NCBI GenBank assembly: GCA_947646095.1
Contig: CANSFI010000001.1
Coordinates: forward strand, 8,402 to 72,401
Length of the DNA: 64,000 bases
Origin: an uncultured Mycoplasmatota bacterium
Lineage (GTDB): Bacteria; Bacillota_I; Bacilli_A; RF39; UBA660
Direction of reading: 5' to 3'
Below, one piece after another: positions 1,169 to 40,296 of this stretch. Within the stretch, counting starts at the first letter, position 1; each line of letters starts with the position of its first letter. Under the pieces are notes generated by a model. The model was given only the letters and a program-made list of their open reading frames with translations. It was not told where the DNA came from and ran no database searches. A program made the translations under genes and the position numbers.

Positions 1169-1287
1169 AAAAACATTATACTAGAGATTTAACTTAAAGT
1201 AAACTTAATTCGTTAATTTTTTATTGATTATTTTGGATTTAATAAGTCAAAATTTATATTATAATTTTAATCATTAATGTAAATTTG

Positions 1288-1296
1288 TGATATAAT
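1288..1296 (+). promoter_or_regulatory. Extended -10 (TGaTATAAT) in front of the ancestral pilin start
   Basis: TGATATAAT at 1288-1296, 25 nt upstream of ATG 1321, followed by RBS AAGGAG. The -35 is poor. AT-rich background limits confidence. Confidence 0.3.
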
Positions 1297-1320
1297 TAAT
1301 AAAGAAAGGAGAATTAAAAA

Positions 1321-1341
1321 ATGAAAAAGAAAGGATTTACA
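1321..1341 (+). pseudogene. Orphaned 5' end (MKKKGFT) of a prepilin gene severed by an IS insertion
   Basis: RBS AAGGAG plus ATG AAA AAG AAA GGA TTT ACA. The pilin-like reading ends exactly at the IS left terminus (1342). The same GFT codons reappear at 2765-2774 and continue as LIELLAV. Confidence 0.75.
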
Positions 1342-2766
1342 CCAATGCTGTCAACTTAAGGATAGACATTCATAATACTATCTGTTAAAATGAAAATAGA
1401 GGTGGTATGTAGATGTCGTTATATACTAAGCTTACTGGTATAAATAAAACAATAGCTGCTACTTATGAAAAAAACTGTTGGAAACTTAAAGAAACATCAT
1501 TTATAAGAAATAGAAAGATGGATTATGAAACATTAGTTAAAAGTATAATATTCAAAAAAGGACAGACATTGGTATTAGAAATAGACGAATTTACAAAAAA
1601 AATGGAGACACAAAAAATAACAAAGCAGGCATATTCAAAGCAAAGACAAAATTTAGATCCTAAAGTATTTAAACATTTAAACGACGAATATATAAAAAAA
1701 ATATATGAAGAAATAAAAGTAAAAAGATATAAAAAGTATATAGTAATATCAGTAGATGGAAGTACAATCGAATTGCCAAATAGCGAGGAATTAAAGAAAC
1801 ATTATGGATTGTGTGAAGGACAAAAAGGAAGTGTAGGAAGAGTAAGGGCAAAATCATTAGGTATATACGATAGTTTAAACAAAATAATGGTAAAAAGTAA
1901 TATAGATCCATATAACGTAAGTGAAAAATATCAAATAATAAAAATGCTAGATGAAGTAAAAGAGTTCTACAAAGAAGAAGAAATAATAATGGTATTTGAT
2001 AGATATTATTTCGGAATATCATTTATAAATATGTTAGAAGAAAAAGGAATAAAATATTTAATGAGAATGAGATAAAATCACTATAAAAAAGAGAAAACAG
2101 AAATGAAAAGCAAAGATGAAATAGTGAAATTAAAAGTTAGAAAAAATAGTATATTTTATGCGAATGAAGAGGAAAAAGAAAAATTAAAAGAAAAAAATAT
2201 GTGGAAACAAGAATAATAAAACTAACATTAGAAACAGGAGCCGAAGAACATTTAAGTACTAATTTAAGCAAGGAAGAATTAAGTATAAAAGAGGCAAAAG
2301 AACTGTATTTTACAAGATGGAATATAGAAAAATCATTTGATATAATAAAAAACAAATTAAATATAGAAAATTTTTCTTCAAAAAAAGTAATAGGAGTAGA
2401 ACAGGAGTTTTATGCCCAAATTATGGTATATAATATGATAGAAGATTTAAAAAGAGATGCAGAAGAAGGAGTAAAAAAGAGACATATTTAAAATATGAAT
2501 ATAAAATAAACATGAATATATTGGCAGGAAAATTTAAGAAGGAATTTATAGAAGTATTAATATCACCAACTGTAGAAGAAAGTACAAAAAGATATATGAA
2601 TATGATAGAAGAATTAAGAAAAAATGTTGTGCCAATAAAACCAGGAAGAAGATTTGAAAGAAGAAAAATGCATAGTATGAATAAGTATAGAAGTAATTTA
2701 AGGAGAAATGTATAATGAAAAAGTATTTAAAAACAAAGGGAAAAGAGTTTAAGTTGACAACATTGG
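1342..2766 (+). mobile_element. IS4-family insertion sequence (1425 bp), transposase inactivated
   Basis: Terminal IRs are CCAATGCTGTCAACTTAAG (1342-1360) and the reverse complement of 2748-2766 (17/19 match). An 8-bp direct repeat GATTTACA lies at 1334-1341 and 2767-2774. The internal DDE transposase carries the Y-x2-R-x3-E-x6-K signature (YFTRWNIEKSFDIIK). Confidence 0.85.
1413..2715 (+). pseudogene. IS4-family DDE transposase broken into three ORFs
   Basis: In-frame TAA at 2073-2075 with homology continuing after it (NHYKKEKTEMKSKDEIVKL). Frameshift in the A-run near 2190-2200. Second frameshift in the A-run at 2473-2478 (KKETYLKYEYKINMNILAGKF continues in another frame). Confidence 0.85.
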
Positions 2767-3815
2767 GATTTACACTTATAGAATTACTTGCAGTAATAAT
2801 AATACTCTCTATAATAGCCCTAATTACAGTACCAGTAATAATGAATATAATAGAAAGAGCTAATAAGAGTGCATTTAAAGATTCAGCATATGGAATAATC
2901 AAAGCAGGTGAATTACATTATGCTGATAAACTATTAGATCATGCTGGTATGACAAATGATATAACATTTACTTTTCCTGAAGCTACAGGACTAGATATAA
3001 AAGGATCAAGACCAAAAAGTGGAAATATGAAAGTAACTAAAGATGGTAAAATAGAACTTGCTATAAGTAATGGAAAATGGTGTGCTAGAAAAAGTTTAAA
3101 TGAAGAAGAGATAACTATAGATAATAATATAAAAGATTGTTCATTAATAAAAATACCAAATCCAATCATAATAACAAATAATAATTGTCTAACAGAAGGA
3201 ATATGTGAAAATGGAGTATTAGTAAATGTCAAAGTAAACGATACAGAAAACCATAATTTCTATGTAATTGGTGATACAAATGGAGAATTAACACTAATAA
3301 TGGATAGAAATTTAGGAAGTGATGTGGAATGGATAACTAAAGAAGATTATTTAGCAGCAGGTGGTACAAAAAGTTGGGTATCTTATGGAAATAATGATAA
3401 AGGTCCACTAACAGCTTTAAAAACTTTAGAATATAGAACTAAAAATTGGTCTAATATAGATGCTTATGATTATGAATTAATAGATGATAGCAAAGAAAAT
3501 GTATATCAGCCAATAAAAATAGCTGGTGCTAGAGCAAGATTGTTAACTTTGACAGAAGCAAAAAATTTGGGATGTGAAAGTGCTTTGGTTGAAAAAAGTT
3601 GCCCAGAATATTTATATGATAATTTATTTAGTACTAATCATGCAGATGATCAAATAGCTTATTGGTTGTCTACAGCAACTAAGAAATCTTCGTTTTATGC
3701 AGCTTACAATAAATATTTTATGTATTATAAAGGAACTTTTAAAAGTTATGCAAATGTTAGTATTGGGAATCGCCAAGGACTTCGCCCAGTTATAAAAATA
3801 TCTAAAACTATATAA
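2715..3815 (+). CDS. Prepilin-type N-terminal cleavage/methylation protein (paralog 1) with IS-encoded leader and a large C-terminal module
   Basis: MKKYLKTKGKEFKLTTLG|FTLIELLAVIIILSIIALITVP is a class III signal. ATG 2715 and RBS AGGAG (2701-2705) lie inside the IS right end. The C-terminus ends GLRPVIKIS and is paralogous to 9257-10336. Confidence 0.8.
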   Translation: MKKYLKTKGKEFKLTTLGFTLIELLAVIIILSIIALITVPVIMNIIERANKSAFKDSAYGIIKAGELHYADKLLDHAGMTNDITFTFPEATGLDIKGSRPKSGNMKVTKDGKIELAISNGKWCARKSLNEEEITIDNNIKDCSLIKIPNPIIITNNNCLTEGICENGVLVNVKVNDTENHNFYVIGDTNGELTLIMDRNLGSDVEWITKEDYLAAGGTKSWVSYGNNDKGPLTALKTLEYRTKNWSNIDAYDYELIDDSKENVYQPIKIAGARARLLTLTEAKNLGCESALVEKSCPEYLYDNLFSTNHADDQIAYWLSTATKKSSFYAAYNKYFMYYKGTFKSYANVSIGNRQGLRPVIKISKTI

Positions 3816-8433: not shown

Positions 8434-9111
8434 ATGAAACGAGGATTTACTTTAATAGAATTACTTGCAGTAATAATACTTCTTTCTATTATAGCCTTAA
8501 TTACTGTGCCAACCATTATGAATATAATAGAAAAAGCTAAAAAAAGTTCATTTAAAGATAGTGCTTATGGAATTATTAAAGCAGGAGAATTAAGTTATTC
8601 AAAAAAATTATTAGATCCAAATAGTACATTAACAGATATGGCATTTACTTTTCCAGAAGCAGAAGGACTTGAAATAAAAGGAACAAAACCTAAAAGTGGG
8701 ACAATGATAATAAATACAGAAGGTAAAGTAAGTCTTAGTATAACTGATGGAAAATATTGCGCTAAAAAAGATTATAGTGATGATAATATAACAATAACTG
8801 ATAATGTAGAAGATTGCAAGGAAACTAAAAAAGCTATGAGAAGATCAATGATAGTTAATAAATTGATAACTGACTTAAAAGTATCAGAAACAAATATAGA
8901 ATTAAATTTAAATGAAAGTCGTTTTATAACAGCAACAATAAGTCCAAGTGATGCGACTAATAAAAGTTTAACATGGATGACTGAAAATCCTTCTATAGTT
9001 ATAGTAGAAGTTGGCAAAGTAACAGGGTTAAGTAAGGGAACAACAAAAATAACAGTTGAAGCAATGGATGGAAGTAATATCAGAAAAGAAATAAATATAA
9101 CAGTAAAATAA
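8434..9111 (+). CDS. Prepilin-type protein (paralog 2) with a canonical short leader and a C-terminal Big_2-like Ig domain
   Basis: MKRG|FTLIELLAVIILLSIIALITVP. The first ~110 aa are highly similar to paralog 1. The C-terminal ATISPSDATNKSLTWMTENPSIV...GTTKITVEA resembles bacterial Ig-like group 2. Confidence 0.85.
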   Translation: MKRGFTLIELLAVIILLSIIALITVPTIMNIIEKAKKSSFKDSAYGIIKAGELSYSKKLLDPNSTLTDMAFTFPEAEGLEIKGTKPKSGTMIINTEGKVSLSITDGKYCAKKDYSDDNITITDNVEDCKETKKAMRRSMIVNKLITDLKVSETNIELNLNESRFITATISPSDATNKSLTWMTENPSIVIVEVGKVTGLSKGTTKITVEAMDGSNIRKEINITVK

Positions 9112-9122
9112 AAATAATTATA

Positions 9123-9140
9123 ATGAAATTAGGATTTACA
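9123..9140 (+). pseudogene. Orphaned ancestral start (MKLGFT) of pilin paralog 3
   Basis: ATG AAA TTA GGA TTT ACA, then TCAATTAAG. This resembles the IS left end CCAA[TGCTGTCAAC]TTAAG with 10 nt missing. The reading frame closes after 5 more codons. Confidence 0.55.
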
Positions 9141-9305
9141 TCAATTAAGATAATTTAAAACTAATAAATAATTGATAAAACCAATATCAAAATATAATTT
9201 GAAATAAAATAATTAAATTATTTTCATATAAATATAAACAAATTGGAGGAATAATAATGAAAAACAATACATTGAAAAATGAAAAGAAAAAGATCACAAC
9301 ATTAG
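9141..9305 (+). mobile_element. 165-bp scar of the same IS4-family element (both ends retained, body deleted)
   Basis: Left: TCAATTAAGATA versus IS CCAATGCTGTCAACTTAAGGATA. Right: AAGATCACAACATTAG versus IS AAGTTGACAACATTGG. It is followed by CCTTTACA where the intact copy has the duplicated GATTTACA. ATG 9257 lies 49 nt from the scar end, versus 52 nt in the intact IS. Confidence 0.55.
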
Positions 9306-10336
9306 CCTTTACATTAGTAGAATTAATAGGGGTAATAACACTACTTGGATTAATCATGATAATAGTAACACCACCAATAATAAATCAAATAAGAAATAGT
9401 GAAGGTAAACTAGATGAAGCAATAGAGACTTTAATTTATTCAGCTACTGATTTATATATAGATAGTAAAAAAAATGATTATCCTAAAAATAATGATAATA
9501 TATATTGTGTAACATTAAAAGAATTAGTAGATGATGGAAAATTAAAAGAACCAATTTTAAATAGTAAAGGAAAAGAAATAGATTTAAATAAATATGTAAA
9601 AATAGAAGTAAAAAATAACCAATATAAATATTTAATAACAGATGAATGTAGTGGTATAATACAAAGTAGTATTTTAACATCTACTGATGCTTGTTTAAAA
9701 GATGGTAGTGTTTGTTCAAATGGAGTATTAGTAAACGTTAAAGTAAATGATAATGAAGATTATGACTTTTATATAATTGATGATGATGGTGAAAATCTAA
9801 CACTTATAATGAATCAAAACTTGGGTGATAATGTTGCTTGGATAATTAAAGAAGATTATATAGCTTTTGGAGGAACTACATCTACTTGGAGTAATAGTAG
9901 CAGCGGTAGAATTAATACGAAAGGTCCAAGAACAGCACTTAAAACATTGGAAGAAAGAACATCTGATTGGACAAATATACCATTAATGACTTATGTATTA
10001 ATAGATGATAAACCAGATGCTGATGGAACAACAGCAAGATATTCACCAATTGAAATAAAGAATCTAAGAGCAAGAATGTTGACTTATACAGAAGCAGTAT
10101 CATTGGGATGTGAATTTAATAAAAGTGGTTCTTGTCCAGAGTATTTAAGGGAAAATTTAGTTGTTGCATCAACTTCAGGACAACCATCAGCATATTGGTT
10201 ATCAACAGCCCGTTCTTTCTCCAATACTTATACAGATGCATTTAAAATAATGACAAATACTCTTGGCGGTGATTATGCATATGATATTAATTTTACAGGA
10301 GTAAGACCAGTAATAAAAATTTCTAAAAAAGCATAA
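9257..10336 (+). CDS. Prepilin-type protein (paralog 3) with IS-scar-derived leader and Ala at position -1
   Basis: MKNNTLKNEKKKITTLA|FTLVELIGVITLLGLIMI. The C-terminal ~200 aa are paralogous to 2715-3815 (NGVLVNVKVND..., YWLSTA..., GVRPVIKIS). Confidence 0.8.
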   Translation: MKNNTLKNEKKKITTLAFTLVELIGVITLLGLIMIIVTPPIINQIRNSEGKLDEAIETLIYSATDLYIDSKKNDYPKNNDNIYCVTLKELVDDGKLKEPILNSKGKEIDLNKYVKIEVKNNQYKYLITDECSGIIQSSILTSTDACLKDGSVCSNGVLVNVKVNDNEDYDFYIIDDDGENLTLIMNQNLGDNVAWIIKEDYIAFGGTTSTWSNSSSGRINTKGPRTALKTLEERTSDWTNIPLMTYVLIDDKPDADGTTARYSPIEIKNLRARMLTYTEAVSLGCEFNKSGSCPEYLRENLVVASTSGQPSAYWLSTARSFSNTYTDAFKIMTNTLGGDYAYDINFTGVRPVIKISKKA

Positions 10337-10340
10337 AACG

Positions 10341-10365
10341 ACACTAAATATAGTGTTTTTTTTTT
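10341..10365 (+). terminator. Rho-independent terminator directly upstream of spoIIGA
   Basis: ACACTA-AATA-TAGTGT hairpin followed by 9 T residues. Confidence 0.6.
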
Positions 10366-10385
10366 ATAATGAAAATGGTGATAAA

Positions 10386-11174
10386 ATGAAAATATATTTA
10401 GATTTAGTTTTAATTCTTAATTTTATCTTTGATTTTTTATTACTTGCATCAGTGTCAATATTTTTAAGAAGAAACGTAACTTTAACTAGACTTATTTTAG
10501 GAGCTTTTATAGGAAGTATTAGTATATTATGTTTATTTATAAATATCAATTCATTTGAACTATTTGTAATTAAAATATTTATAAGTATTTTAATGGTATT
10601 AATAACATTTAATTATAGAAGTATAAAATATACTTTAAAAAATATGTTTTATTTATATACAACTAGTATGATATTAGGAGGATTTTTATATTTCTTAAAT
10701 GTAGAGTTTTCTTATAAACAAATAGGTATGGTTTTTTATCATAATGGACTTAGTATAAATGTAATAGTATTAATAATTTTATCACCACTAATACTATATT
10801 TTTATACAAAACAAATTAAAGAGTTAAAAAATAATTATAGTAATTATTATAAAGTAAAAATAAAAATGGATAAGCATATAATTAATTGTAATGGATTTCT
10901 AGATACAGGAAATAAATTAGAAGATCCATACTTTCATAAGCCAGTTATAATTTTAGATAAAAGAAAAATAGTTTTTGATATAAACGAATTTGAAATGATA
11001 TTAGTACCAATTCTAACAGTAAATGGTACTAGTATGATTAAGTGTTTTAAAGCAGATTATATAGATATAGAAGGAATAGGAATTAAAAATAATTTTTTAA
11101 TAGGTATTATGGAAGATAAAATTAAAATAGATGGAGTAGATGTAATTTTAAATACTAAGTTATTGGAGGGATAA
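10386..11174 (+). CDS. spoIIGA: Sigma-E processing aspartic peptidase SpoIIGA
   Basis: MKIYLDLVLILNFIFDFLLL with multi-TM N-terminal half, catalytic GFLDTGNKLEDP, position immediately before sigE, and RBS GGTGA. The upstream in-frame ATG at 10353 lies in the terminator. Confidence 0.9.
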   Translation: MKIYLDLVLILNFIFDFLLLASVSIFLRRNVTLTRLILGAFIGSISILCLFININSFELFVIKIFISILMVLITFNYRSIKYTLKNMFYLYTTSMILGGFLYFLNVEFSYKQIGMVFYHNGLSINVIVLIILSPLILYFYTKQIKELKNNYSNYYKVKIKMDKHIINCNGFLDTGNKLEDPYFHKPVIILDKRKIVFDINEFEMILVPILTVNGTSMIKCFKADYIDIEGIGIKNNFLIGIMEDKIKIDGVDVILNTKLLEG

Positions 11175-11175
11175 G

Positions 11176-11868
11176 ATGATAAAGAAAATAATTGATTTTA
11201 TAATTAGAATTTTTAATGAAAATGTTGGTATTTTTTATGTTGGAAGTGCTGATAAATTACCAGAACCATTATCTAAAGAAGAAGAAATTAAATATGTTGA
11301 ACTTTCTATGAATGGAGATGAAATGGCAAGAGCAAAACTTATAGAACATAATTTAAGATTGGTAGTTTTTTTATCTAAAAAATATGAAAATACTAATGTA
11401 GATTTAGAAGATTTAGTAAGTATTGGAACAATAGGTTTAATTAAAGGAGTTAATACTTATAAATTAGACAAAAATATTAAACTTGCAACCTATGCATCTC
11501 GTTGTATAGATAATGAAATATTAATGTTTTTAAGGAAAAATAAAAAAAGAAGAGGAGAAGTAAGTTTTGAAGATAGTTTAAGTTATGATGCTGAGGGAAA
11601 TGAACTACACTTAGAAGATATTTTAGGAACTGAATCTGATATAGTAACTAAAAACTTAGAACAAGAAACAGATAAAAAACTATTATATGACGAAATATCT
11701 AAATTAAATGGTCGTGATAAACAAATAATGATTTTAAGATATGGATTATATGGTAGAGAAGAAATGACTCAAAAAGATGTAGCAACTGTTTTAGGAATAT
11801 CACAATCATACATATCTAGAATTGAAAAAAAAGTTATTAGAAGACTTAAAAATTTAATGAAAATATAA
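11176..11868 (+). CDS. sigE: Sporulation sigma factor E (pro-sigma-E)
   Basis: N-terminal pro-sequence, then YVGSADKLPEPLSKEEE, LIEHNLRLVVFLSKKY, ATYASRCIDNEILMFLRK, and a region 4 HTH. RBS GGAGGG. Confidence 0.93.
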   Translation: MIKKIIDFIIRIFNENVGIFYVGSADKLPEPLSKEEEIKYVELSMNGDEMARAKLIEHNLRLVVFLSKKYENTNVDLEDLVSIGTIGLIKGVNTYKLDKNIKLATYASRCIDNEILMFLRKNKKRRGEVSFEDSLSYDAEGNELHLEDILGTESDIVTKNLEQETDKKLLYDEISKLNGRDKQIMILRYGLYGREEMTQKDVATVLGISQSYISRIEKKVIRRLKNLMKI

Positions 11869-19654: not shown

Positions 19655-21721
19655 ATGAAACGAATAAGTATAATTATATGTTTAGTATTTTTTTCTCTTT
19701 TTATTAACTTAAATATAGTTAGTGCTAAATCTACAGCCTCAACAGGAGTAAATGAATTATATATAAGATCATTGCCAACTACAGATTCTTTAGCGCAATT
19801 TAAAATCCCTCATAGTACAACAATTACTTTAATAAGTGATACCGAAAAAAGTGGTAATGGTTGTGATAAAAATTGGTTTCAAATTGAGTACGATAAATAT
19901 TCAGGATATGTATGTAGTGAATATTTAACTAATATAAATTGGGAACAAACCAAAGAAAGTAATGAAAATATAGATAATGGTGAAACAACTGAAACTAATA
20001 ATACTAAAAGTAATGAAACGTTATATCTTCAAGAATTAGCTAAATTTCCAGATAGTTATAAATCTAAAATAGAAGCTTTACATAAAATCTATCCTAATGC
20101 TATTTTTAAAGCTCAGAATATTAATACAACTTTTGATAACTTTTCTACTTATCAATATAAAGGCTATGATAAGGGTAGTTTATCAGGCTGTTCAATTGGG
20201 ATAGCTGTAGGAAGAAGTTTAATAGAAGATACTAATGGTAGTCGTGATGGATTAAAATCATTAGAATCTTGGGCATACAATCCATTAACAGATACTTTTA
20301 ATACATCTTATTATGGTGGAGAACAAGGGAGATGGTATGCTCCAAGTCTAGATACAGTAAAATACTATGTTGATCCTAGAAATTTTTTAAATAGTACTAA
20401 AGTATTTATGTTTGAGCAACTTTCATATGCTGGTGATTATTATACTGAAGAAAATATTGAAAAAATGCTAAAAGGGACATTTATGTCTAATAAAAATGTA
20501 AGTGGTAGAGATAATAAAACATTTGCCCAAACTTTCTTAGATGCAGGAAAAACCCATAATGTAAATCCTTATTTTTTAGTTTCTCGAGTTATTCAAGAAA
20601 TCGGAACAACAAGAACAACTATGGTAAGTGGTACTTGGACTGAATATAATAAAGCTTATTATGGATATTATAATTTTTACAATATTAAGGCAGCTGGAAA
20701 TAGTGTTAATGAAACTATTAAAAATGGTTTAGCTCATGCTAAAAGTCAAGGATGGAATAACGAATACGATGCTATTGTTGGGGGAGCTAAATTTTTGGCT
20801 CAAGATTATATATCTCAAGGACAAAATACTACATATTTTCAAAAATTTGATGTATATGGTCCATGCTATGCTTATCATCAATATATGCAAAATATTGAAG
20901 CGCCATATCATGAAGTAAATAAAGTTTATAATACCTATAATAGTACTGGTTTACTTCAAAGTAATTTTGTATTTGTGATTCCAGTTTATAATAATATGCC
21001 TACAAGTACATCACTTCCAGATTCTAGAAGTAGTAATAATTATTTAAGAGATTTAACAATCAATGGTACTACTATTAATGGATTTAATTATCAAAAGAAT
21101 GAATATACTATTAATGTTTCTCCTTTAATATCTTCAGTAGAAATAGCAGTTACTAAAGCAAGTCAAAAATCTAGTGTTACAGGAACAGGAAGTTTTAACT
21201 TAACAGGTACTAGTCAAACTAAAGAAATTGTTGTTACTGCTCAAAATGGAACTAAAAGAACATATAAAATAACAGTAACAAAAGATACTAATATTCCAAT
21301 TAGTATTAGTGAAATTTTAAATACAATGTTAGTTAATAGTGATGGAACATATATTAGTAGTATAAAATTAAATACAAAAGTTAGTGAATTTATTGAAAGT
21401 GCTAAAAAAGTAGATAGTAAAGCTAGTGTTACAGTAAAAAATAAACAAGGAAATCAAATTCTTGCAACAGGAGATAGTGTAACTATTACAAGTGGTAATG
21501 ATACTAAAACATTTACTGTTGTAATATATGGAGACTTAACAGGTGATGGCATTATAAATTCAGCTGATTTACTTAAAATGCGTCAACATTTAATTGGTTC
21601 AACTAAATTAGCAAAAGCTTACAATATAGCTGCTAATATTAACAAAGATGAAGTTATAAATTCAGGAGATTTACTTAAACTTCGTCAGCACTTAATTGGT
21701 TCTGCAACCATCGTTCAGTAG
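19655..21721 (+). CDS. Secreted SH3b / N-acetylglucosaminidase / cadherin-like beta-sandwich / dockerin protein
   Basis: Signal peptide. SH3b-like NELYIRSLPT...YSGYVCSEYL. Glucosaminidase FLDAGKTHNVNPYFLVSRVIQEIG. NNYLRDLTINGTTINGFNYQKNEYTINV repeat. Two dockerin segments, GDLTGDGIINSADLLKMRQHLIG and NINKDEVINSGDLLKLRQHLIG. Confidence 0.8.
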   Translation: MKRISIIICLVFFSLFINLNIVSAKSTASTGVNELYIRSLPTTDSLAQFKIPHSTTITLISDTEKSGNGCDKNWFQIEYDKYSGYVCSEYLTNINWEQTKESNENIDNGETTETNNTKSNETLYLQELAKFPDSYKSKIEALHKIYPNAIFKAQNINTTFDNFSTYQYKGYDKGSLSGCSIGIAVGRSLIEDTNGSRDGLKSLESWAYNPLTDTFNTSYYGGEQGRWYAPSLDTVKYYVDPRNFLNSTKVFMFEQLSYAGDYYTEENIEKMLKGTFMSNKNVSGRDNKTFAQTFLDAGKTHNVNPYFLVSRVIQEIGTTRTTMVSGTWTEYNKAYYGYYNFYNIKAAGNSVNETIKNGLAHAKSQGWNNEYDAIVGGAKFLAQDYISQGQNTTYFQKFDVYGPCYAYHQYMQNIEAPYHEVNKVYNTYNSTGLLQSNFVFVIPVYNNMPTSTSLPDSRSSNNYLRDLTINGTTINGFNYQKNEYTINVSPLISSVEIAVTKASQKSSVTGTGSFNLTGTSQTKEIVVTAQNGTKRTYKITVTKDTNIPISISEILNTMLVNSDGTYISSIKLNTKVSEFIESAKKVDSKASVTVKNKQGNQILATGDSVTITSGNDTKTFTVVIYGDLTGDGIINSADLLKMRQHLIGSTKLAKAYNIAANINKDEVINSGDLLKLRQHLIGSATIVQ

Positions 21722-21734
21722 GAGGTAAAATAAA

Positions 21735-23195
21735 GTGAAAAAAGTAAGTATGATTTTAGTAGGAATATTTTGTTTGTTTTTAGGGATCGATAAGATATTT
21801 GCTGCTGGTAGTATTAATGTTAATAAATCAAGTATGTATTTAGGTGATTCAGTTACTGTATCAGTTACGGTTACAAATGCTGCTGCTTGGGAAATTCATG
21901 TAGGTGTTAGTGGCTCAGCTAGTGCTTCTAATTGTGGTACTTTAAATTGGGCAGATAGTGATGCTAATGCTCAAAATACTTCTCGTACATATACAACTAC
22001 TTGTAAACCAACTAAAACAGGTAGTGTTAATTTTGTACTAAGTGGTAACACAACAGATGCTTTTGGTAATACAGTTAATATATCAGGTAGTAGGACTGTT
22101 TATATTAATAATAAACCAACAACTCCTTCTAATAATACTCAAACAACTAAACCAAATAATAGTACTCAAAATAATAATGGTACAGTAACGCCTAAATCAT
22201 CAGTTAACTATTTAAAATCTTTAGAAATAGAAGGTAAACAAATAAATCCTAAATTTAATAAAGAAACATTAGAATATTCTATTGAATTAGAATCAGGTAC
22301 TACTAGTATTAATATAAAAGCAACTCCTGAAGATAATAAAGCTAATATAGTTGGGACAGGTATAAAAAAAGTTACAGAAGGGGTTAATAACTTTGAGATA
22401 GTAGTTACTGCTGAAAATGGAAGTAAAAGAACCTATAAACTAAAAGCCACAGTTAAAGAAAAAGATCCTATTATTGTTACAGTTGATAATGAAGAATATA
22501 CTGTTATAAGAAAAAGAGATCAGTTAATAAGTGCTAGTGCCTTTTATAGTGAAAGTACTGTTAAAATAAATGATGAAGATATACCAGCCTATTTTGGAGA
22601 AGTTACAGGTTATACTTTAGTAGGACTTAAAAATAGTGAAGGAATTATTAATTTATTTATTTATGATGAAGATAAAAATAGTTATAAATTATATAGAGAG
22701 TTTAACTTTTCTAGAACTGTTTTTTATCCAGTAGATGTTTCTTCAAAATTAATACCTAAAAATTATTTTAAATATACTACTACTATAGATGGTATAGAAG
22801 TCCCTTGTTATAAAATGGATAAAGATGATGAATTTTTACTTTTATATGGTGTCAATATAGAAAATAACAATAAAGGCTTTTATATTTATGATCCTACTGA
22901 AAATACTTTACAAAGATATAATGACAAAATATTTGATAAAGTAAATGATGAAATTAAAGTATTAGAAGCCATAATTATTGGTTTAGTTGGTGTAATAATA
23001 GTAATTGTAATCGTAGCTGCATTTCAAGGAAGTATGGGTAAAAAAGGAACTAAAAAAACAAAAAAAGTTCATAAAGCAAAAAAAATGGGAAATATTAAAG
23101 AAGAAGTCAAAGAAAATAAAGTATTAGAGGAACCAAAAGTAGAAAAATTCGATACTGAAAGAATTGATATTAATGATATAAATATTAATAAATAA
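21735..23195 (+). CDS. C-terminally anchored surface protein with a cadherin-like beta-sandwich domain
   Basis: GTG start with RBS AGGAGG, and a signal peptide. About 100-aa beta-rich N-domain, T/N/P linker, VNYLKSLEIEGKQINPKFNKETLEYSI domain, C-terminal TM IIIGLVGVIIVIVIVAAF and a K-rich tail. Confidence 0.6.
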   Translation: MKKVSMILVGIFCLFLGIDKIFAAGSINVNKSSMYLGDSVTVSVTVTNAAAWEIHVGVSGSASASNCGTLNWADSDANAQNTSRTYTTTCKPTKTGSVNFVLSGNTTDAFGNTVNISGSRTVYINNKPTTPSNNTQTTKPNNSTQNNNGTVTPKSSVNYLKSLEIEGKQINPKFNKETLEYSIELESGTTSINIKATPEDNKANIVGTGIKKVTEGVNNFEIVVTAENGSKRTYKLKATVKEKDPIIVTVDNEEYTVIRKRDQLISASAFYSESTVKINDEDIPAYFGEVTGYTLVGLKNSEGIINLFIYDEDKNSYKLYREFNFSRTVFYPVDVSSKLIPKNYFKYTTTIDGIEVPCYKMDKDDEFLLLYGVNIENNNKGFYIYDPTENTLQRYNDKIFDKVNDEIKVLEAIIIGLVGVIIVIVIVAAFQGSMGKKGTKKTKKVHKAKKMGNIKEEVKENKVLEEPKVEKFDTERIDINDININK

Positions 23196-23308: not shown

Positions 23309-24520
23309 TTGATTGGATTAATTGTTTATAAAAAACATATCATAGATTTAAAAAATAGAGAAATAGAAAAACAAAAACAAGAAGAAAATTTGGTAAAAAA
23401 GATTAAAGATAGTTATAATGATTATGTTAGCACTAATAAAGATTCTAAATTATATTTATTAGAAAATAATAAATATAAAGAAATTGGAACTATTTCTAAA
23501 GATACAATTATAAATTTAGAAGCAACAGATATAACATTAGAAACTAAATACTTTAAAATAGTAGGTTTAGATAGTGATTACTATATTAGTTATGAAGATA
23601 TCGTAAAAACAGAAGCAAAAGAAAAAAACAAACGTTATTTAAATTATATAAAATTAGATAAACAAATAATTACAAAAGATAAGACTAATTTTTATCTAAA
23701 TGATAAATTAATATATAGTATTGATAAATCATTTACTTTTCCAATTTATATGATCGATAATGATAAATATTATATTGAATATGATGGGAATCTTATGTAT
23801 GTTTTAAAAGATGATATTAAAGAGATCAAAGATGTTAAAAATAATGATGAATATGCAAAAGAAATGGCTGTAATTGTTTATCATTTCGTGTATGATTCAT
23901 CAAAAAATGAAGAATGTAATCAATCTATATGTCACTCTGTAACACAATTTAATAGTCACTTAGATTATATTAAAAATAATAACTTTTTTACACCAACTAT
24001 GCATGAATTTGAGCTTTTTATGGATGGAAAGATAAAATTGCCTAAAAAAAGTGTTATGATAACTATTGATGATGGTTGGTATGCTCATAATGCTTCTAGA
24101 CTTCTTACTGAACATAAACTAAATGGAACAGTATTCTTAATCACTAAAAGTTATGAAAAAGAATATGTTGCAACAGAATATGTAGAAGCACATTCTCATA
24201 CTCATGATATGCATAATCCTGGTATTTGTCCCGGTGGTCAAGGTGGAGGAATAAAATGTTTATCTAAAAGTGTTATTTTAAATGATTTAAAAACTAGCAG
24301 CGAAAAACTAGGTGGTTCAAAAGCGTTATGTTATCCATTTTATGAATATAATGATTATTCAATATCAGTTCTAAAGGAAGCTGGATATACTTTAGGATTT
24401 GCAGGATATATGGCAAATGGAACCATAAAGGCAAGAGTAGGAGCAGATAAATATAAAATTCCTAGAGTTACAATGGTAAATAATAGTAGCGTTGAATATT
24501 TAGCAAGCATAATAAATTAG
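23309..24520 (+). CDS. Polysaccharide deacetylase (NodB homology) with a damaged 5' end
   Basis: VMITIDDGWYAHN, HSHTHDMH, ALCYPFYEY motifs. ATG 23255 with RBS GGTGA is in-frame but interrupted by TAA at codon 5 (23267-23269). The ORF-track start is a TTG inside the TM anchor. Confidence 0.7.
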   Translation: MIGLIVYKKHIIDLKNREIEKQKQEENLVKKIKDSYNDYVSTNKDSKLYLLENNKYKEIGTISKDTIINLEATDITLETKYFKIVGLDSDYYISYEDIVKTEAKEKNKRYLNYIKLDKQIITKDKTNFYLNDKLIYSIDKSFTFPIYMIDNDKYYIEYDGNLMYVLKDDIKEIKDVKNNDEYAKEMAVIVYHFVYDSSKNEECNQSICHSVTQFNSHLDYIKNNNFFTPTMHEFELFMDGKIKLPKKSVMITIDDGWYAHNASRLLTEHKLNGTVFLITKSYEKEYVATEYVEAHSHTHDMHNPGICPGGQGGGIKCLSKSVILNDLKTSSEKLGGSKALCYPFYEYNDYSISVLKEAGYTLGFAGYMANGTIKARVGADKYKIPRVTMVNNSSVEYLASIIN

Positions 24521-24529
24521 AGGTGAATT

Positions 24530-25699
24530 ATGAAAAAAAATATTTTATTTGTAATAGATGAGAGAAGAATGGGGGGAGTTTCTGTTCTTCTTCAAGATAT
24601 TGTTAATATTATTAATATTGATAAATACAATATAGATATTTTGTGCTTACATAATAATGGAGAAATGTTAAATAATTTGCCTGATGGAGTAAATTTAATA
24701 TTTGGCACTAAATATTTTGAAGCTATAGATTATACATATAAAGAGGTTTTAAAAAGTAAAAATTTAAATTTAATTTTAAAAAAATTATGGATTATTTTAG
24801 ACATGAAAACAGGAAAAATTAAAAACAAGTTAAAAAAGGAGCGTGTTAAAATATTACAAAAAAAATATGATGTAGAAATAGCTTTTAAAGATGGTTTTAC
24901 AGCTTTATTTACAGCATTTGGAAATTCAAAAAAAAAGGTTCATTGGTTACATTATGAATATATAAAAACTAACCCTAATGAAAAATATGACAAATTATTT
25001 AAAAAAATTTTGCCGATATTTGATAAAATAGTAGCAGTATCTTCTGGAGTAAAAGAAGCTTTTAATAATATTTATCATTTAGAGGAAAAAACTATTGTTA
25101 TTAATAATTTGATCGATACAGATAGAATTATTGAAAAATCAAAAGAAGATGTTGATGTTATATTAGATAAAAAACAATTTAATGCTGTAAGCGTTGGAAG
25201 ATTACATCCAATGAAAGGATATGATCGATTAGTAAAAATATTAAATAATTTAAATATAGAAAATATGTTGCCTAAAAATTTTGTATTTAGATTATATGGA
25301 GATGGTCCAGATAGAAATTTATTGGAAAATCTAATTGTTAAATATCATTTGGAAGATAAAGTAAAATTAATGGGACAAGTTATGAATCCTTATAAGTATA
25401 TAAAGAGTTCAGATTTATTTTTAATGCCATCAAATTATGAACCATTTGGTTTAGTAATTGTTGAATCAATGGTTTTGAATGTTCCTGTGATCGCAACAAG
25501 TAATGCGGCAACTAAAAAATTAATAAATCATGATTTTAATGGGTATATAGTAGAAAACTCAGATAAAGGTCTTTATAATGGTTTAAAATATTTATTTGAA
25601 AACTTAGATAAAATAAAATACTATAAATCGAATCTAAAATATTACGAGTATAAAAATAATAAAATAATCAAACAAATAAATGAGGTGCTAGATATATGA
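24530..25699 (+). CDS. Glycosyltransferase family 4
   Basis: GGVSVLL N-terminus. VGRLHPMKGYDRL...LFLMPSNYEPFGLVIVESM motif. Confidence 0.8.
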   Translation: MKKNILFVIDERRMGGVSVLLQDIVNIINIDKYNIDILCLHNNGEMLNNLPDGVNLIFGTKYFEAIDYTYKEVLKSKNLNLILKKLWIILDMKTGKIKNKLKKERVKILQKKYDVEIAFKDGFTALFTAFGNSKKKVHWLHYEYIKTNPNEKYDKLFKKILPIFDKIVAVSSGVKEAFNNIYHLEEKTIVINNLIDTDRIIEKSKEDVDVILDKKQFNAVSVGRLHPMKGYDRLVKILNNLNIENMLPKNFVFRLYGDGPDRNLLENLIVKYHLEDKVKLMGQVMNPYKYIKSSDLFLMPSNYEPFGLVIVESMVLNVPVIATSNAATKKLINHDFNGYIVENSDKGLYNGLKYLFENLDKIKYYKSNLKYYEYKNNKIIKQINEVLDI

Positions 25700-27228
25700 A
25701 AGATAAGATAAGGGAATTAATTAAAAATAATAAAAATTTGTTGGGATTATTATGTCTTTTTATCATAATACAACCAATTTTAGATATAAATTGTTTATTT
25801 AGAAATAAGAATTTACAATTATTTGGATTTACAATTCCAACATTAGTTAGATGCTTGTTTATAGGTATATTAACATTAATAACTATAAAAAACGCTAAAA
25901 ATAAAAAAAATTATATATATCTTTCTATTTATTTTGGTGTTATTTTAGTATATACTATTATTCATCATTTAATTTCAAGTGATCAAAATATTGTTATACC
26001 TACATCATATGCATATTCTTTATTTTCAGAATTATTTTATATTATAAGGATGATTTTGCCACTTACCATAATTTATTTTACTAAAAAATCAAATGTTGAT
26101 TATCAAAAATTTAGTAGAACAATATTAGTTTCTTCTTTTATAATTGGATTTGTAATATTTATTGGTAATACTTTATGCATATCATATACTTCTTATGAAA
26201 CTAAAACTAATATTACAACATTGAATTGGATTGGTTGGCTATTTAATGATTTATCAAAGTATAATTATAATGAATTAACTTCAAAAGGTTGGTTTTATAT
26301 GGCTAATCAAGTAAGTGGTCTAATGATTTTACTTTTACCATTTTGCTTATATGATGTATTAAAAAAAACTAGAAAATTCAATATTATTACTTCATTTTTA
26401 TTAATTATTTCCATGATTATGATTGGAACTAGAACAGCAGCTTATGGATGGATTTTAATATATATATGTTTAATAATTGTTTTATTTTATCTAAGGATTT
26501 TGAAAAAAGAAACTTGGTGGAATTTTAAACGTTTGATACCTTTTTTATTAATACTAGTAATAGGAATATTTTTTCTTGCTATTTCCCCTATAAATAATCG
26601 AAAATATGGTTATAAATTAGGTGATCTTAATAGTTTAGGAAAGAAACCCAGTGATGATACTTCAGTAGATATCAGAGAAAAATATATTCTTGATAGTTAT
26701 AAAGTTTTTGGTATTCAAGAAAGATATGTAAAAAAACTATATAATTATAAATTTGATTCAGATTTTTGGTTTAATGTTTTTGAATTATCTAAGAAAAATG
26801 GAGTTATAGAAAATCGAGAAATGCAAACATTGATTTCGAATAGAATTGATGAACTAAATGGGAGTAAGTTGAAATATAAATTGTTTGGTTATTCTTTTTC
26901 GAGAATGCGTAATGGTGGCATATATATGGAACACGATTTTATTGTACAAGCTTTTACTATGGGGTATATTGGTTTAATACTTTTAGTTGGACCATATATT
27001 GCTATAATGGTATTAGTTTCATTAAAAATTTTAAAGAAACTTAAAAATCAGCCAAAATTGATTAGTATAACATTTGTTATAGCGATTTGTGCACTTCTTG
27101 GAGTTTCAGTATTTTCAGGTCATATACTAGATGAACTATTCGTAACAATTTATTTAGGATTTATTTGTGGCTTCTTTTGGAAAACAACCAATATAGGAGA
27201 GGTTAAATTTGATGAAAAAGAATGTTAA
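25696..27228 (+). CDS. O-antigen ligase/polymerase-like (Wzy-type) multi-TM protein
   Basis: More than 10 TM helices. MIGTRTAAYGWILIY segment and a large loop, as in O-antigen polymerase-like proteins. Overlaps the upstream stop. Confidence 0.55.
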   Translation: MKDKIRELIKNNKNLLGLLCLFIIIQPILDINCLFRNKNLQLFGFTIPTLVRCLFIGILTLITIKNAKNKKNYIYLSIYFGVILVYTIIHHLISSDQNIVIPTSYAYSLFSELFYIIRMILPLTIIYFTKKSNVDYQKFSRTILVSSFIIGFVIFIGNTLCISYTSYETKTNITTLNWIGWLFNDLSKYNYNELTSKGWFYMANQVSGLMILLLPFCLYDVLKKTRKFNIITSFLLIISMIMIGTRTAAYGWILIYICLIIVLFYLRILKKETWWNFKRLIPFLLILVIGIFFLAISPINNRKYGYKLGDLNSLGKKPSDDTSVDIREKYILDSYKVFGIQERYVKKLYNYKFDSDFWFNVFELSKKNGVIENREMQTLISNRIDELNGSKLKYKLFGYSFSRMRNGGIYMEHDFIVQAFTMGYIGLILLVGPYIAIMVLVSLKILKKLKNQPKLISITFVIAICALLGVSVFSGHILDELFVTIYLGFICGFFWKTTNIGEVKFDEKEC

Positions 27229-28180
27229 ACTAAGTGTTATTATTCCTTGTTATAATGTAAGTGAATATATTGAAAAATGTATTTTAAGTTTGATTAATCA
27301 AACTTTGACTGATATTGAAATAATAGCAGTTAACGATGGTTCCAAAGATGATACAATAGAAAAATTAAATAAACTTGCTAAAAAATATTCTAATATTATT
27401 GTAATTAATAAAAAAAATGAAGGTGTATCAATTGCTAGAAATAGGGCTTTAGAAATCGCCCATGGAGATTATATTGGCTTTATGGATAGTGATGATTGGG
27501 CTAATAGTGATATGTATGAAAAACTATATAATAAAGCTATAAAAGGTGATTATGATATAGTTGCATGTGATACAAATGCTATATATCCAGATAATATAAA
27601 ATATATTTCTTCCAATATAGGGGATAATAGTTCTAATAGAGAACTTATGATAAATGCTTATGCAGTTATTTGGAATAAAATTTATAGAAGAAAATTGCTT
27701 GAAAATATTAAATTTAAAGAACATATGACTTTTTGTGAAGATGTTAGATTTTTATATATGATTTATTCACGAGTTAATAAAATAGGAGTAATTAAAGAAC
27801 CATTATATAACTATTTGCAAAGACAAGGATCATTAACTTATACTTACAATGAAAAATTATATCAATTAATAGAAAGTTTAGATGATATAATAGATTATTA
27901 TAAAAAAGAAAAAAAATTTAACAAATATAAAGAAGAATTAGAATATTCATATGTTAGATATTTATATGCTACTTTTATAAAAAGATTAGCAAAAACAAAA
28001 AACAAAAAAGAATTTAAAAAAGGAGTAAAATATGTAATAGAAAAAGTGAATAATACTTTTCCTAATTATAAAAAAAATAAATATATAAAAAATAAATCTT
28101 TTAAAAGTATTTATTTAAAATATTTCAATAAAACAATTTCTAAATTAGTATTTTTAAAAGAAAAAAACACTATGAATTGA
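27212..28180 (+). CDS. Glycosyltransferase family 2
   Basis: LSVIIPCYNVSEYIEKCILSLINQTLTDIEIIAVNDGSKDDT and FMDSDDW (DxD). Confidence 0.85.
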   Translation: MKKNVKLSVIIPCYNVSEYIEKCILSLINQTLTDIEIIAVNDGSKDDTIEKLNKLAKKYSNIIVINKKNEGVSIARNRALEIAHGDYIGFMDSDDWANSDMYEKLYNKAIKGDYDIVACDTNAIYPDNIKYISSNIGDNSSNRELMINAYAVIWNKIYRRKLLENIKFKEHMTFCEDVRFLYMIYSRVNKIGVIKEPLYNYLQRQGSLTYTYNEKLYQLIESLDDIIDYYKKEKKFNKYKEELEYSYVRYLYATFIKRLAKTKNKKEFKKGVKYVIEKVNNTFPNYKKNKYIKNKSFKSIYLKYFNKTISKLVFLKEKNTMN

Positions 28181-28189
28181 GGGTTATTT

Positions 28190-29023: not shown

Positions 29024-29033
29024 AAGGTGTGTA

Positions 29034-30233: not shown

Positions 30234-30244
30234 GAGGTGATTTA

Positions 30245-31702: not shown

Positions 31703-31714
31703 GGAGGTATTTTA

Positions 31715-32443: not shown

Positions 32444-32446
32444 TTT

Positions 32447-40290: not shown

Positions 40291-40296
40291 TAAATT

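Follow-up and report, generated by a model that had tools for sequence, protein, structure and literature searches.

The pilin gene that begins at position 9257 of the window, as we call the whole 64-kb stretch of DNA analysed here, is best explained as a gene now started by the decayed stump of a pilin-targeting insertion sequence (IS) of the IS4 subgroup, and we consider this explanation likely. The IS-derived stump occupies 9142-9304 on the + strand (163 bp, CAAT...CATTA), contains no transposase and separates the pilin body from an orphan pilin start upstream, MKLGFT (9123-9140). It probably supplies the Shine-Dalgarno (SD) site, the ATG at 9257 and the leader MKNNTLKNEKKKITTLA of the pilin gene, with translation from that ATG being inferred. 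What is shown is that the stump is homologous to element ends and in register with the junction, that such fusions recur in other places, and that a native allele with a short leader exists. Because the lineage always lands on the same pilin codon and supplies a leader, we regard the stump as a real, unusual case of a mobile-element end kept in a host gene.

Table 1 Features of the stump locus and of the resident IS (window positions; ↓, predicted prepilin cleavage site)
Feature	Position	Strand	Remark
Resident element of the IS4 subgroup, 1423 bp; transposase split into three ORFs	1343..2765	+	Perfect 10-bp duplications, orphan start
Pilin gene started by the resident IS	2715..3815	+	ATG 2715 overlaps the transposase stop (TAATG)
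Upstream pilin gene, native short leader (MKRG↓FTLIELL)	8434..9111	+	No terminator between gene and stump
Orphan pilin start ATG AAA TTA GGA TTT ACA T (MKLGFT)	9123..9141	+	Resembles orphan starts left of full elements
Left copy of 10-bp target duplication, GGATTTACAT	9132..9141	+	Same 10 bp duplicated in L191 and the L192 miniature
CAAT, sole recognisable remnant of the left terminal repeat	9142..9145	+	Intact elements have CAATGCTGTCAACTTAAGG
Homology to the last 130-147 nt at the right end of intact elements	9166..9304	+	Alignments to L191, L156, L020
SD site GGAGG, 7 nt before ATG 9257	9245..9249	+	Counterpart of the transposase-terminal AGGAGG
Leader MKNNTLKNEKKKITTLA, 17 codons, likely IS-derived	9257..9307	+	Last codon GCC spans the junction
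Type IV pilin-like gene, 359 aa	9257..10336	+	Mature part starts FTLVELIG; C-terminal domain DUF1566-like
Degenerate right terminal repeat, AAGATCACAACATTA	9290..9304	+	Intact form AAGTTGACAACATTG
Right copy of duplication, GCCTTTACAT	9305..9314	+	Encodes A↓FT, the prepilin cleavage site

The two copies of the 10-bp duplication on either side of the stump are 8/10 identical, as are those of the full elements L020 and L156, and lie at the target consensus of the lineage, GGnTTTACnt. The left junction, at which GGATTTACAT runs into CAAT, is the same in L191 and the L192 miniature, and an orphan pilin start precedes it. The orphan start lacks an SD site, reaches a stop after 11 codons and lies 134 nt upstream of ATG 9257. 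Motifs of its type, M-x(1-4)-G-F-T, occur four times in the window against 0.35 expected, three of the four at pilin sites. Inside the homologous block, decayed codons of the transposase C-terminus are recognisable (ATAAAACCA = I-K-P), and the GGAGG of the stump corresponds to an AGGAGG (Arg-Arg codons) that closes the transposase gene in intact elements. The right terminal repeat agrees with its intact form at 12 of 15 positions, which is suggestive only when combined with the register. The stump sequence is unchanged across six samples of the species.

Over its last 130-147 nt, the stump aligns collinearly with right ends from independent elements, in the register set by the junction. The stump and all 4095 real segments of 163 nt from the window were scored on the terminal 170 nt at the right side of L191, L156, L020, L160 and the resident IS, five independent elements; no segment scored as high as the stump (in one case 49 against a maximum of 36). 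This empirical null took the place of a shuffle test, in which local pairwise alignment of the stump to the whole IS was not significant (51/100 dinucleotide shuffles scored as high). With an nhmmer profile of 12 right ends, the stump was the top non-IS match in the window and again in register with the junction, yet reached only 5.2 bits (E = 2). A left-end profile detected nothing from 9142 onward at the stump, which shares only CAAT with the left terminal repeat. None of the normal pilin upstream regions taken as controls reached the stump's score; these were only about six sequences, too few to be useful. The sequence signal is modest (E = 2; 54-67% identity to other element ends), and we judge the stump to be a likely remnant of the pilin-targeting IS4-subgroup lineage. 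Alignment to the 185-bp L192 miniature was weak (47/4095 real segments scored as high), and descent from that particular miniature is not claimed.

The resident IS near the start of the window is flanked by perfect 10-bp copies of GGATTTACAC (1333-1342 and 2766-2775) and preceded by an orphan start, MKKKGFT (1321-1341); perfect 10-bp duplications are also found in L191 and the L192 miniature. Since the lineage makes a 10-bp duplication, we set the bounds of the resident IS at 1343-2765 and those of the stump at 9142-9304. The transposase fragments of the resident IS match Pfam DDE_Tnp_1 and NCBIfam transpos_IS4_1, and the Y(2)R(3)E(6)K signature is seen as YFTRWNIEKSFD(V/I)IK both in ORF 2201-2491 of the window and in L156, L182 and L191, whose transposases are intact (434-439 aa). 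The terminal sequence of the IS4 subgroup, -AATR--------WTW----, is met at both ends (left, CAATGCTGTCAACTTAAGG; right, reverse complement, CAATGTTGTCAACTTAAAC), as are its duplication length (10 bp, within 10-13 bp) and size (1423 bp, within 1400-1650 bp). The resident IS and its intact relatives are very likely members of the IS4 family, IS4 subgroup. The leader MKKYLKTKGKEFKLTTLG of the pilin at 2715 reads out via the terminal repeat of the resident IS, and this pilin has empty-site relatives (P0012, P0010). The stump is not a copy of the resident IS, because its last 76 nt are 56% identical to it, whereas right ends from other species are 73-84% identical. A possible invertible switch at 940-1168 lies in the same orientation in three assemblies.

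A preliminary description, made from sequence alone, had read the locus as a 165-bp scar of the same IS at the same pilin codon. Its literal statements all held: the orphan start at 9123-9140 is followed by TCAATTAAG; AAGATCACAACATTAG at 9290-9305 matches AAGTTGACAACATTGG at 13/16, with CCTTTACA next; ATG 9257 lies 49 nt from the element end, against 52 nt for ATG 2715; and the leaders read MKNNTLKNEKKKITTLA and MKKYLKTKGKEFKLTTLG. The register of its scar is corrected to the 163 bp given above. Its view of TCAATTAAG as the IS left end with 10 nt missing is dropped, because the left-end profile found nothing at the stump, and CAAT is all that the two share. "The same IS" holds only in part, for the lineage and not for the copy. 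A formal alignment, the check that it had proposed, was not significant over shuffles when made to the whole IS; 0 of 4095 real segments scored as high against element right ends.

At least 15 further pilin genes have the same element end joined to them at the -1 codon; they lie in other genomes and, in the case of a 185-bp miniature, in the same species. These fusions comprise five full elements (1.29-1.45 kb), three of which encode the intact transposases (L156, L182, L191), a further five junctions located at contig ends or close to them, a single miniature, and four to five solo or leader-only remnants (leader-only in L114, L136, L144 and L160). The miniature, L192, carries both terminal repeats and perfect duplications without a transposase, in another pilin gene of the species. 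Transposases of pilin-targeting elements are 61-68% identical to one another but at most 42% identical to those of other carriers of the same repeat. Mismatched duplications also flank the full elements L020, L156 and L182. An open out-reading frame with an SD site and a start was present in each of the 13 element ends examined, and pilin ORFs stay intact beside decayed transposases in the window and L020; some leader-only pilins are truncated (28 aa in L160, 69 aa in L136). Scanning metagenomes for junctions of the scar type (AAGNTNACAACATTNGNNTTTAC) yielded nine fusions of element and pilin, each with a terminal repeat that is nearly intact, besides some chance matches, and no second ITTLA-type scar.

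Relatives of the 9257 pilin indicate what its native start looks like. An allele that is 99.8% identical from 9304 onward (P0189/L195) starts with MKKA, a short leader also borne by close relatives, and its homology to the window stops exactly at the right edge of the stump. In both L195 and L001 the homology ends at the junction, and the upstream regions resemble window 1250-1341 instead. L195, in which the gene order is yunB-pilin-spoIIGA, is a single metagenome contig, and a chimera across pilin paralogs is possible. Homologues of the first 67 aa of the 9257 pilin were collected by an exhaustive HMMER search; a word-based search gave none. Among 181 relatives, the modal leader is 5 aa, 147 have leaders of 4-6 aa and only six have TTL/TTS-type leaders. 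Ala occupies -1 in 28 of the 181, including the closest ones (4-5 aa leaders), and in L136 an intact element end is fused to an Ala-type pilin (KLTTLA↓FTLIEL). Ala at -1 is therefore a native trait of this pilin clade and not a product of the scar. The pilin paralogs are mosaics.

These comparisons bear on the remaining claims of the preliminary description. Its core reading, that a remnant of an IS occupies the same pilin codon and that the end of this remnant supplies the leader, is supported by the recurrence, the L192 miniature and the MKKA allele, and the search it had suggested for pilins whose leaders match the IS end yielded the 15 or more cases at the same codon. Of its two scenarios, repeated targeting of the G-F-T motif is strongly favoured over gene duplication, because the same end recurs at these other pilin genes. 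The Ala at -1 that it called unusual is no effect of the scar, and its suggestion that the leader is functional stays an inference.

The 9257 protein fits a type IV pilin with a class III signal peptide, having a basic leader, Gly or Ala at -1 (here Ala), Phe at +1, Glu at +5 and about 20 hydrophobic residues (...KKKITTLA↓FTLVELIGVITLLGLIMIIV). It gave weak matches to NCBIfam GspG and ComGC, and no match in TIGR02532 and Pfam N_methyl searches. The ORF is intact over 359 codons behind a strong SD site at 7 nt spacing. The absence of a terminator after the pilin gene at 8434-9111 makes read-through from it a possible source of transcription. Promoter and terminator scans were uninformative in this 23% G+C DNA: promoter counts were no higher than in shuffles, and no terminators were found. 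No prepilin peptidase or pilus assembly genes were present among the scanned ORFs of the window. We lean slightly towards translation from ATG 9257 and cleavage at TTLA↓F, an inference without expression or processing data; a function of the IS-derived leader is likewise inferred, not shown.

Several other explanations can be considered. Chance resemblance in AT-rich DNA, with a long leader that is a native variant and a coincidental MKLGFT, draws on the non-significant shuffle test, the profile E-value of 2 and the undetected left end. It is largely refuted by the 0/4095 result against five independent ends and all but excluded once the exact register with the junction, an orphan start of a motif expected 0.35 times located 134 nt upstream of the pilin start, the native MKKA allele and the short leaders of 147/181 relatives are added. 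Duplication of the IS-bearing pilin gene (1321-3815) with later loss of the IS body from the second copy could account for two genes within 8 kb whose C-terminal domains are 72-74% identical at the DNA level. This scenario is very unlikely and was rejected on sequence divergence: the stump is further from the resident IS (56%) than are ends from other species (73-84%). The two orphan starts are also unlike (MKLGFT at the stump, MKKKGFT at the resident IS), the N-terminal modules of the mature proteins fall into separate pilin clades (A↓FTLVELIG and G↓FTLIELL, respectively), and independent targeting is seen at 15 or more other genes.

Harder to dismiss is a variant of the best explanation, not strictly exclusive of it, in which no IS or miniature ever inserted in this gene and a 5' cassette (orphan start, stump and leader) from another pilin locus was joined to it by recombination between element copies or conserved N-terminal pilin codons. 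The imperfect duplication and the similar mismatches around L020, L156 and L182 fit this possibility, and so do the mosaic paralogs and the end of L195/L001 homology at the junction, with upstreams resembling window 1250-1341. Moreover, the decay of the stump suggests age, whereas the gene next to it shares 99.8% identity with an allele that has a short leader, so the junction may owe something to recombination rather than to decay in situ. Against it, a crossover in the pilin codons puts the -1 codon on the donor side, so that the donor would need an Ala-type junction, and no donor locus was found among the loci examined. It also remains possible that the remnant is real but its leader a neutral relic, the pilin being untranslated, mis-started or uncleaved and on its way to a pseudogene. 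Six samples share an identical region, which leaves no signal of selection to read; the window lacks pilus machinery, and some leader-only pilins elsewhere are truncated. The intact 359-codon ORF with its strong SD site argues against such a relic, as do the pilin ORFs preserved beside decayed transposases (window, L020) and the open out-reading frame with SD and start in 13/13 ends.

Returning to the preferred reading of a decayed IS stump, we propose a mechanistic model. Elements of the lineage duplicate 10 bp (GGNTTTACNY) on insertion and land exactly on the codon of the residue that precedes the prepilin-peptidase cleavage site. In the last ~70 nt of the element, the two Arg codons that close the transposase gene (AGGAGG) double as an SD site, a start codon overlaps the transposase stop, and an open Lys-rich frame of 16-21 codons exits via the terminal repeat (AAG TTG ACA ACA TTG G = K-L-T-T-L-G) into the target, and the severed pilin body thereby gains a new signal leader. 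At 9257, an IS4-subgroup element or a ~185-bp miniature derivative probably inserted and decayed to the stump, so that a transposon-born ribosome site, ATG and leader would start the pilin gene, with the displaced original start left as the orphan MKLGFT. The essentially absent left terminal repeat and the 8/10 duplication weigh against this explanation, as does the Gly encoded by the orphan start where the gene itself has Ala.

It is tempting to extend the model to an IS4-subgroup lineage in very AT-rich gut Bacillota that has specialised on the prepilin-peptidase cleavage codon. Its translationally coupled SD-ATG-Lys-rich leader would rebuild a working class III signal peptide and the insertion would spare the pilin, after which, once the transposase has decayed, ends would repeatedly be retained as permanent leaders (window 9257; L114, L136, L144, L160) and serve as breakpoints at which 5' cassettes of pilins are shuffled. 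Cleavage is inferred here, and the data at hand leave this bolder reading as easily wrong as right. If true, it describes a compact, testable transposon that neutralises its own insertion cost and whose end is turned into host coding sequence, and leaders of 17-22 aa ending in ...K-L-T-T-L-G/A are predicted to be good prepilin-peptidase substrates. For annotation, pilin "N-terminal extensions" of this type and adjacent contig breaks would be transposon ends, and shared ends may explain part of the pilin paralog mosaicism in such genomes.

The IS4 subgroup comprises elements of 1400-1650 bp whose DDE transposase, encoded by a single ORF, bears Y(2)R(3)E(6)K, whose termini read -AATR...WTW and whose duplications span 10-13 bp; some members show "spectacular apparent insertion specificity" (De Palmenaer, Siguier and Mahillon 2008, PMC2266710). 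The lineage described here resembles it in transposase motif, ends, duplication, size and target specificity. It differs in that its target, the prepilin cleavage site, is a conserved motif within coding sequence, and in that the right end has an out-reading SD/ATG/leader ORF rebuilding the 5' end of the target, which is absent from that review. Neisseria REP2 repeats supply a 5' UTR, ribosome site and translational start to host ORFs, pilC1 included, and in-frame repeat ORF fusions are documented (Delihas 2011, PMC3184786). Unlike our lineage, these REP2 and MITE fusions are not IS4-derived, have no gene family targeted at a single codon and involve no signal leader replacement. With MITEs proper, L192 shares both repeats, perfect duplications and the lack of a transposase, and the stump is similar to it in size and content. 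The stump does not qualify as a MITE: it lacks a left repeat, the window has it only once, and the other loci examined gave no further copy (the rest of the genome lies outside the data), and the miniature was likewise at no more than one locus. IS10 pOUT, ISEcp1 and ISAba1 have outward or hybrid promoters, by which an element end keeps or activates downstream expression; they act on transcription only, whereas the window element also gives translation signals and protein sequence. The strategy of rendering harmless an insertion in a conserved, essential-looking sequence is shared with tRNA- or tmRNA-integrating islands and IStrons, which use duplication of a gene 3' end or, in IStrons, RNA self-splicing (PMC4227781), while here a DDE transposon replaces a coding 5' end. 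We found no description of a pilin-targeting IS in the literature searched. Target-specific IS4 elements and repeat-to-ORF fusions are already known, though not, within that literature, an IS aimed at one codon of one protein family and carrying its own replacement leader.

In the window (G+C 23%), three pilin-like genes bearing the class III motif [GA]↓FTL(I/V)EL (arrow, prepilin cleavage site) lie between ftsZ and spoIIGA-sigE. Cell-wall polysaccharide genes fill the remaining scanned part, in which no pilus machinery was found. The pilin paralogs have a mosaic structure. The N-terminal module of the first pilin is shared with the 8434 gene (77%; 2766-3065 and 8443-8742), its C-terminal module with that of the 9257 gene (74%; 3204-3355 and 9713-9864), and in paralog P0002 the 5' UTR of the first pilin (95%; L001:2566-2606 vs window 1288-1328) is joined to the N-terminal module of the 9257 gene. 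A 229-bp segment (940-1168), placed after ftsZ and before the first pilin's promoter region, is enclosed by perfect 25-nt inverted repeats (31-nt at 94%). Its orientation is identical in the window and in loci L123 and L125; a MITE and an invertible switch are both possible readings. Farther along are dockerin, SH3 and cadherin-like surface proteins (19655-23195), a long cell-wall polysaccharide cluster (23309-33523) and a full-length OLE (ornate large extremophilic) RNA (40291-40903, +, 409 bits).

The IS resident at the first pilin gene serves as the reference element. Its 18-nt terminal repeat, CCAATG(C/T)TGTCAACTTAA, has exactly two copies in the window, 1342-1359 (+) and 2749-2766 (-). 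The three ORFs between them match DDE_Tnp_1 and NCBIfam transpos_IS4_1, and represent a transposase interrupted by stops. The IS4 subgroup is defined by ends of the form -AATR--------WTW----, 10-13 bp duplications, a size of 1400-1650 bp and a Y(2)R(3)E(6)K motif (PMC2266710). With boundaries at 1343-2765 (CAATG...CATTG, 1423 bp), the resident IS meets this definition; it contains YFTRWNIEKSFDIIK for the motif, is flanked by a perfect 10-bp duplication GGATTTACAC (1333-1342 and 2766-2775), and fulfills all subgroup criteria tested. To its left, the old pilin start is stranded as ATG AAA AAG AAA GGA TTT ACA (MKKKGFT, 1321-1341); relatives P0012 (MKKKG↓FTLIELL...) and P0010 show the gene uninterrupted. 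In its right end, AGGAG (2701-2705) lies across Arg-Arg codons close to where the transposase frame ends. The following ATG 2715 overlaps the transposase stop (TAATG) and begins an open frame, MKKYLKTKGKEFKLTTLG, that crosses the terminal repeat to enter the pilin body.

Coordinates of the pilin region, the decayed IS remnant (stump) and the related miniature
Feature	Position	Remark
ftsZ	47-829	
Pilin-like genes	2715-3815; 8434-9111; 9257-10336	class III motif
Orphan start	9123-9141	
Duplication copy GGATTTACAT	9132-9141	
IS-equivalent stump	9142-9304	163 bp
Duplication copy GCCTTTACAT	9305-9314	
spoIIGA-sigE	10353-11868	
Miniature	L192:4870-5054; also L193:3310-3494, L194:4870-5054, L002:1-142	185 bp

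The preliminary description read the stump ahead of the 9257 pilin body as a scar of the same IS whose leader had been retained, and named alignments no better than shuffled AT-rich controls as grounds for refutation. Dinucleotide shuffles were borderline against the right 117 nt of the IS (1/300) and not significant against the whole IS, but an empirical control was decisive. We compared 4095 real 163-nt segments of the same AT-rich window with the right-terminal 170 nt of independent elements, and the stump outscored all of them for five ends: L191 (49 vs at most 36), L156, L020, L160 and the resident IS. For the L114 right end, 11/4095 segments score as high. With a profile built on 12 right ends taken from other genomes, the stump ranked third in the window, behind the resident IS's two ends, with a score of only 5.2 bits (E=2) and the match end in register with the junction. 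The alignments to element right ends are collinear, reach 130-147 nt from the end, and take in the SD block (CAATTTGAGGAGGAAT vs CAAATTGGAGGAAT) and decayed transposase C-terminal codons. On the left side, the window has four matches to the pattern M-x(1-4)-GFT vs 0.35 expected, and pilin sites account for three.

The left junction of the stump, GGATTTACAT followed by CAAT, is the same as in L191 and in the L192 miniature, and its duplication matches at 8/10 positions. Past CAAT the left repeat is undetectable, and the reading of a left end with 10 nt missing is not supported. The stump satisfies the criteria of a remnant, left repeat excepted, although its right repeat is suggestive only in combination with the register. 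As a separate candidate, a MITE, it does not meet the definition. Together, our results suggest that 9142-9304 is very probably IS-derived and the source of the gene's start.

A genome scan with the terminal repeat found matches in many phyla. The constant flank is peculiar to each lineage of repeat-bearing elements, which agrees with a published account of 'spectacular' target specificity in the IS4 subgroup (PMC2266710). In the scan of TTAAGTTGACARCATTGG (L003-L122), IS copies bounded by the 18-nt repeat occur in Chlamydiae, Bacteroidota, Ignavibacteria, methanogens and Bacillota; lineage flanks include TATGCGATACGCCCCTAC in Cytophagales, GTAGCAATCAGGGTC in MAG CAYTFC01 and GTGAACATGTAC in Chlamydiae. 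Such lineage-bound flanks suggest target recognition particular to each lineage.

One lineage invariably adjoins G↓FTLIEL and has an SD-ATG-Lys-rich frame in its right end. We collected its forms from the genome scan and a metagenome scan. Five are full elements of 1288-1452 bp (window, L020, L156, L182, L191), each with an orphan pilin start on its left. Five are junctions at or near contig ends: L011, L040 and L061, which are three distinct pilin genes of one metagenome-assembled genome (MAG); L178, where transposase codons persist upstream; and L002, one locus with the L192 miniature. In four leader-only remnants (L114, L136, L144, L160) an upstream transposase is undetectable, and remnant L137 keeps only ~18 nt of the element end. 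At the L137 junction (L137:11560-11600), ATTAAGTTAACAACATTG abuts GGATTTACG without an upstream start codon, and transposase fragments lie 1.3 kb off; a rearranged insertion has probably inactivated this pilin. P0080, P0083 (KLTTLA↓F) and P0100 are further cases from protein searches. The three intact transposases have 434-439 aa. Among the loci examined, transposases of the pilin-adjoining elements share 61-68% identity with one another and <=42% with other repeat carriers. The target consensus is GGnTTTACnt TaATAGAATT. Since flanking duplications are frequently imperfect (L020 8/10, L156 8/10, L182 9/10), that of the stump is not unusual.

The L192 locus shares one sample with L123, which has the window's arrangement of the pilin region. 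Its further pilin gene, P0194/P0007, has an orphan start ATG AAA AGA AAA GGA TTT ACA T (MKRKGFT) ahead, and its leader MVKNILKNKNKSLKLTTLG is supplied by a miniature with both terminal repeats intact and a perfect 10-bp duplication GGATTTACAT. In the miniature, the left repeat and the sequence next to it (the first ~21 nt agree with left ends of other elements) are joined to the right ~103 nt of the IS; the assembly of one MAG breaks within this 185-bp element. Thus, a full element with a broken transposase, a perfect-ended miniature and a decayed stump form a graded series in one species. Direct alignment of stump and miniature is weak (47/4095 real segments score as high), and descent from that particular copy is not claimed.

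All literal sequence statements of the preliminary description held on direct check of the window, and its interpretation held with corrections. 'Same IS' held in part: the lineage is the same, the copy different. It had left open whether the pilin gene duplicated after the insertion or the IS targeted the site repeatedly; the evidence favours repeated targeting and speaks against duplication. Ala at -1, presented as an oddity, occurs in 28/181 relatives with a recognisable cleavage motif and is a clade trait rather than a by-product of the scar. Leaders have 4-6 aa in 147/181 of these relatives and are of TTL/TTS type in only 6/181. The relatives closest in the mature N-terminus open with MKKA or MNKKA (P0002, P0041, P0042, P0044), and P0189, a near-identical cluster member, begins MKKA↓FTLVELIG. 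The contig that carries P0189, L195, matches the window at 99.8% identity over 1416 nt, starting at 9304 and continuing through spoIIGA, and is unrelated farther left, so the break coincides with the right edge of the stump. In all likelihood, the long IS-derived leader is not native to the 9257 gene.

The left part of L195 contains yunB, together with a 5' region that resembles window 1250-1341 at 77% identity. As a structural variant (L195:2281-3766 vs window 1250-1341 and 9304-10719), it places pilin and spoIIGA directly 3' of yunB. It could be a true rearrangement broken at the element junction or a chimeric contig; the latter is not excluded because L195 is a single short metagenome contig and the pilin paralogs share long near-identical N-terminal stretches. 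The stump is 54-67% identical to other ends, which are themselves 73-84% identical to the resident IS. It appears old, but the gene next to it hardly differs from the short-leader allele, and this tension is unresolved. Together with the Gly/Ala mismatch of the duplication copies and the mosaic paralogs, it suggests recombination, and it is tempting to speculate that 5' cassettes moved between pilin bodies at element ends or conserved pilin codons.

Each of the 13 element ends examined has an open out-reading frame equipped with SD and start, and the phase of this frame is constant, the terminal G beginning the -1 codon. Intact pilin ORFs stand next to decayed transposases in the window and L020. 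The transposase stop overlaps the leader start as TAATG or TGATG (window 2713-2717; equivalents in L020, L156, L191), and the SD is formed by the transposase's last Arg-Arg codons (window, L020, L156, L191). Judged from sequence alone, pilin translation might be coupled to transposase translation in intact elements.

We then propose a model for the 9257 gene. Its transcription would be read-through from the 8434 gene, inferred because no terminator was found between that gene and the stump. Translation would start at ATG 9257, 7 nt from GGAGG (9245-9249), and the prepilin would be cleaved at TTLA↓F. Prepilin peptidases need chiefly Gly at -1 and tolerate Ala, and they process type IVb pilin leaders of up to about 25 residues. 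Therefore, no feature of the stump-derived leader is obviously disqualifying. Two leader-only pilins elsewhere are truncated, a signal against leader function, and the stump region gives no selection test because it is invariant in six samples. With translation and cleavage only inferred, we lean modestly towards a functional leader.

An IS aimed at the prepilin cleavage codon with a replacement leader is undescribed in the literature searched, although absence there is no proof of novelty. Start-donating repeats and harmless insertion are already known. Neisseria REP2, fused to pilC1 among others, likewise donates a ribosome site and start codon, and in-frame MITE fusions are on record (PMC3184786). 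Strategies of harmless insertion include IStrons, whose insertion is likewise rendered harmless (PMC4227781).
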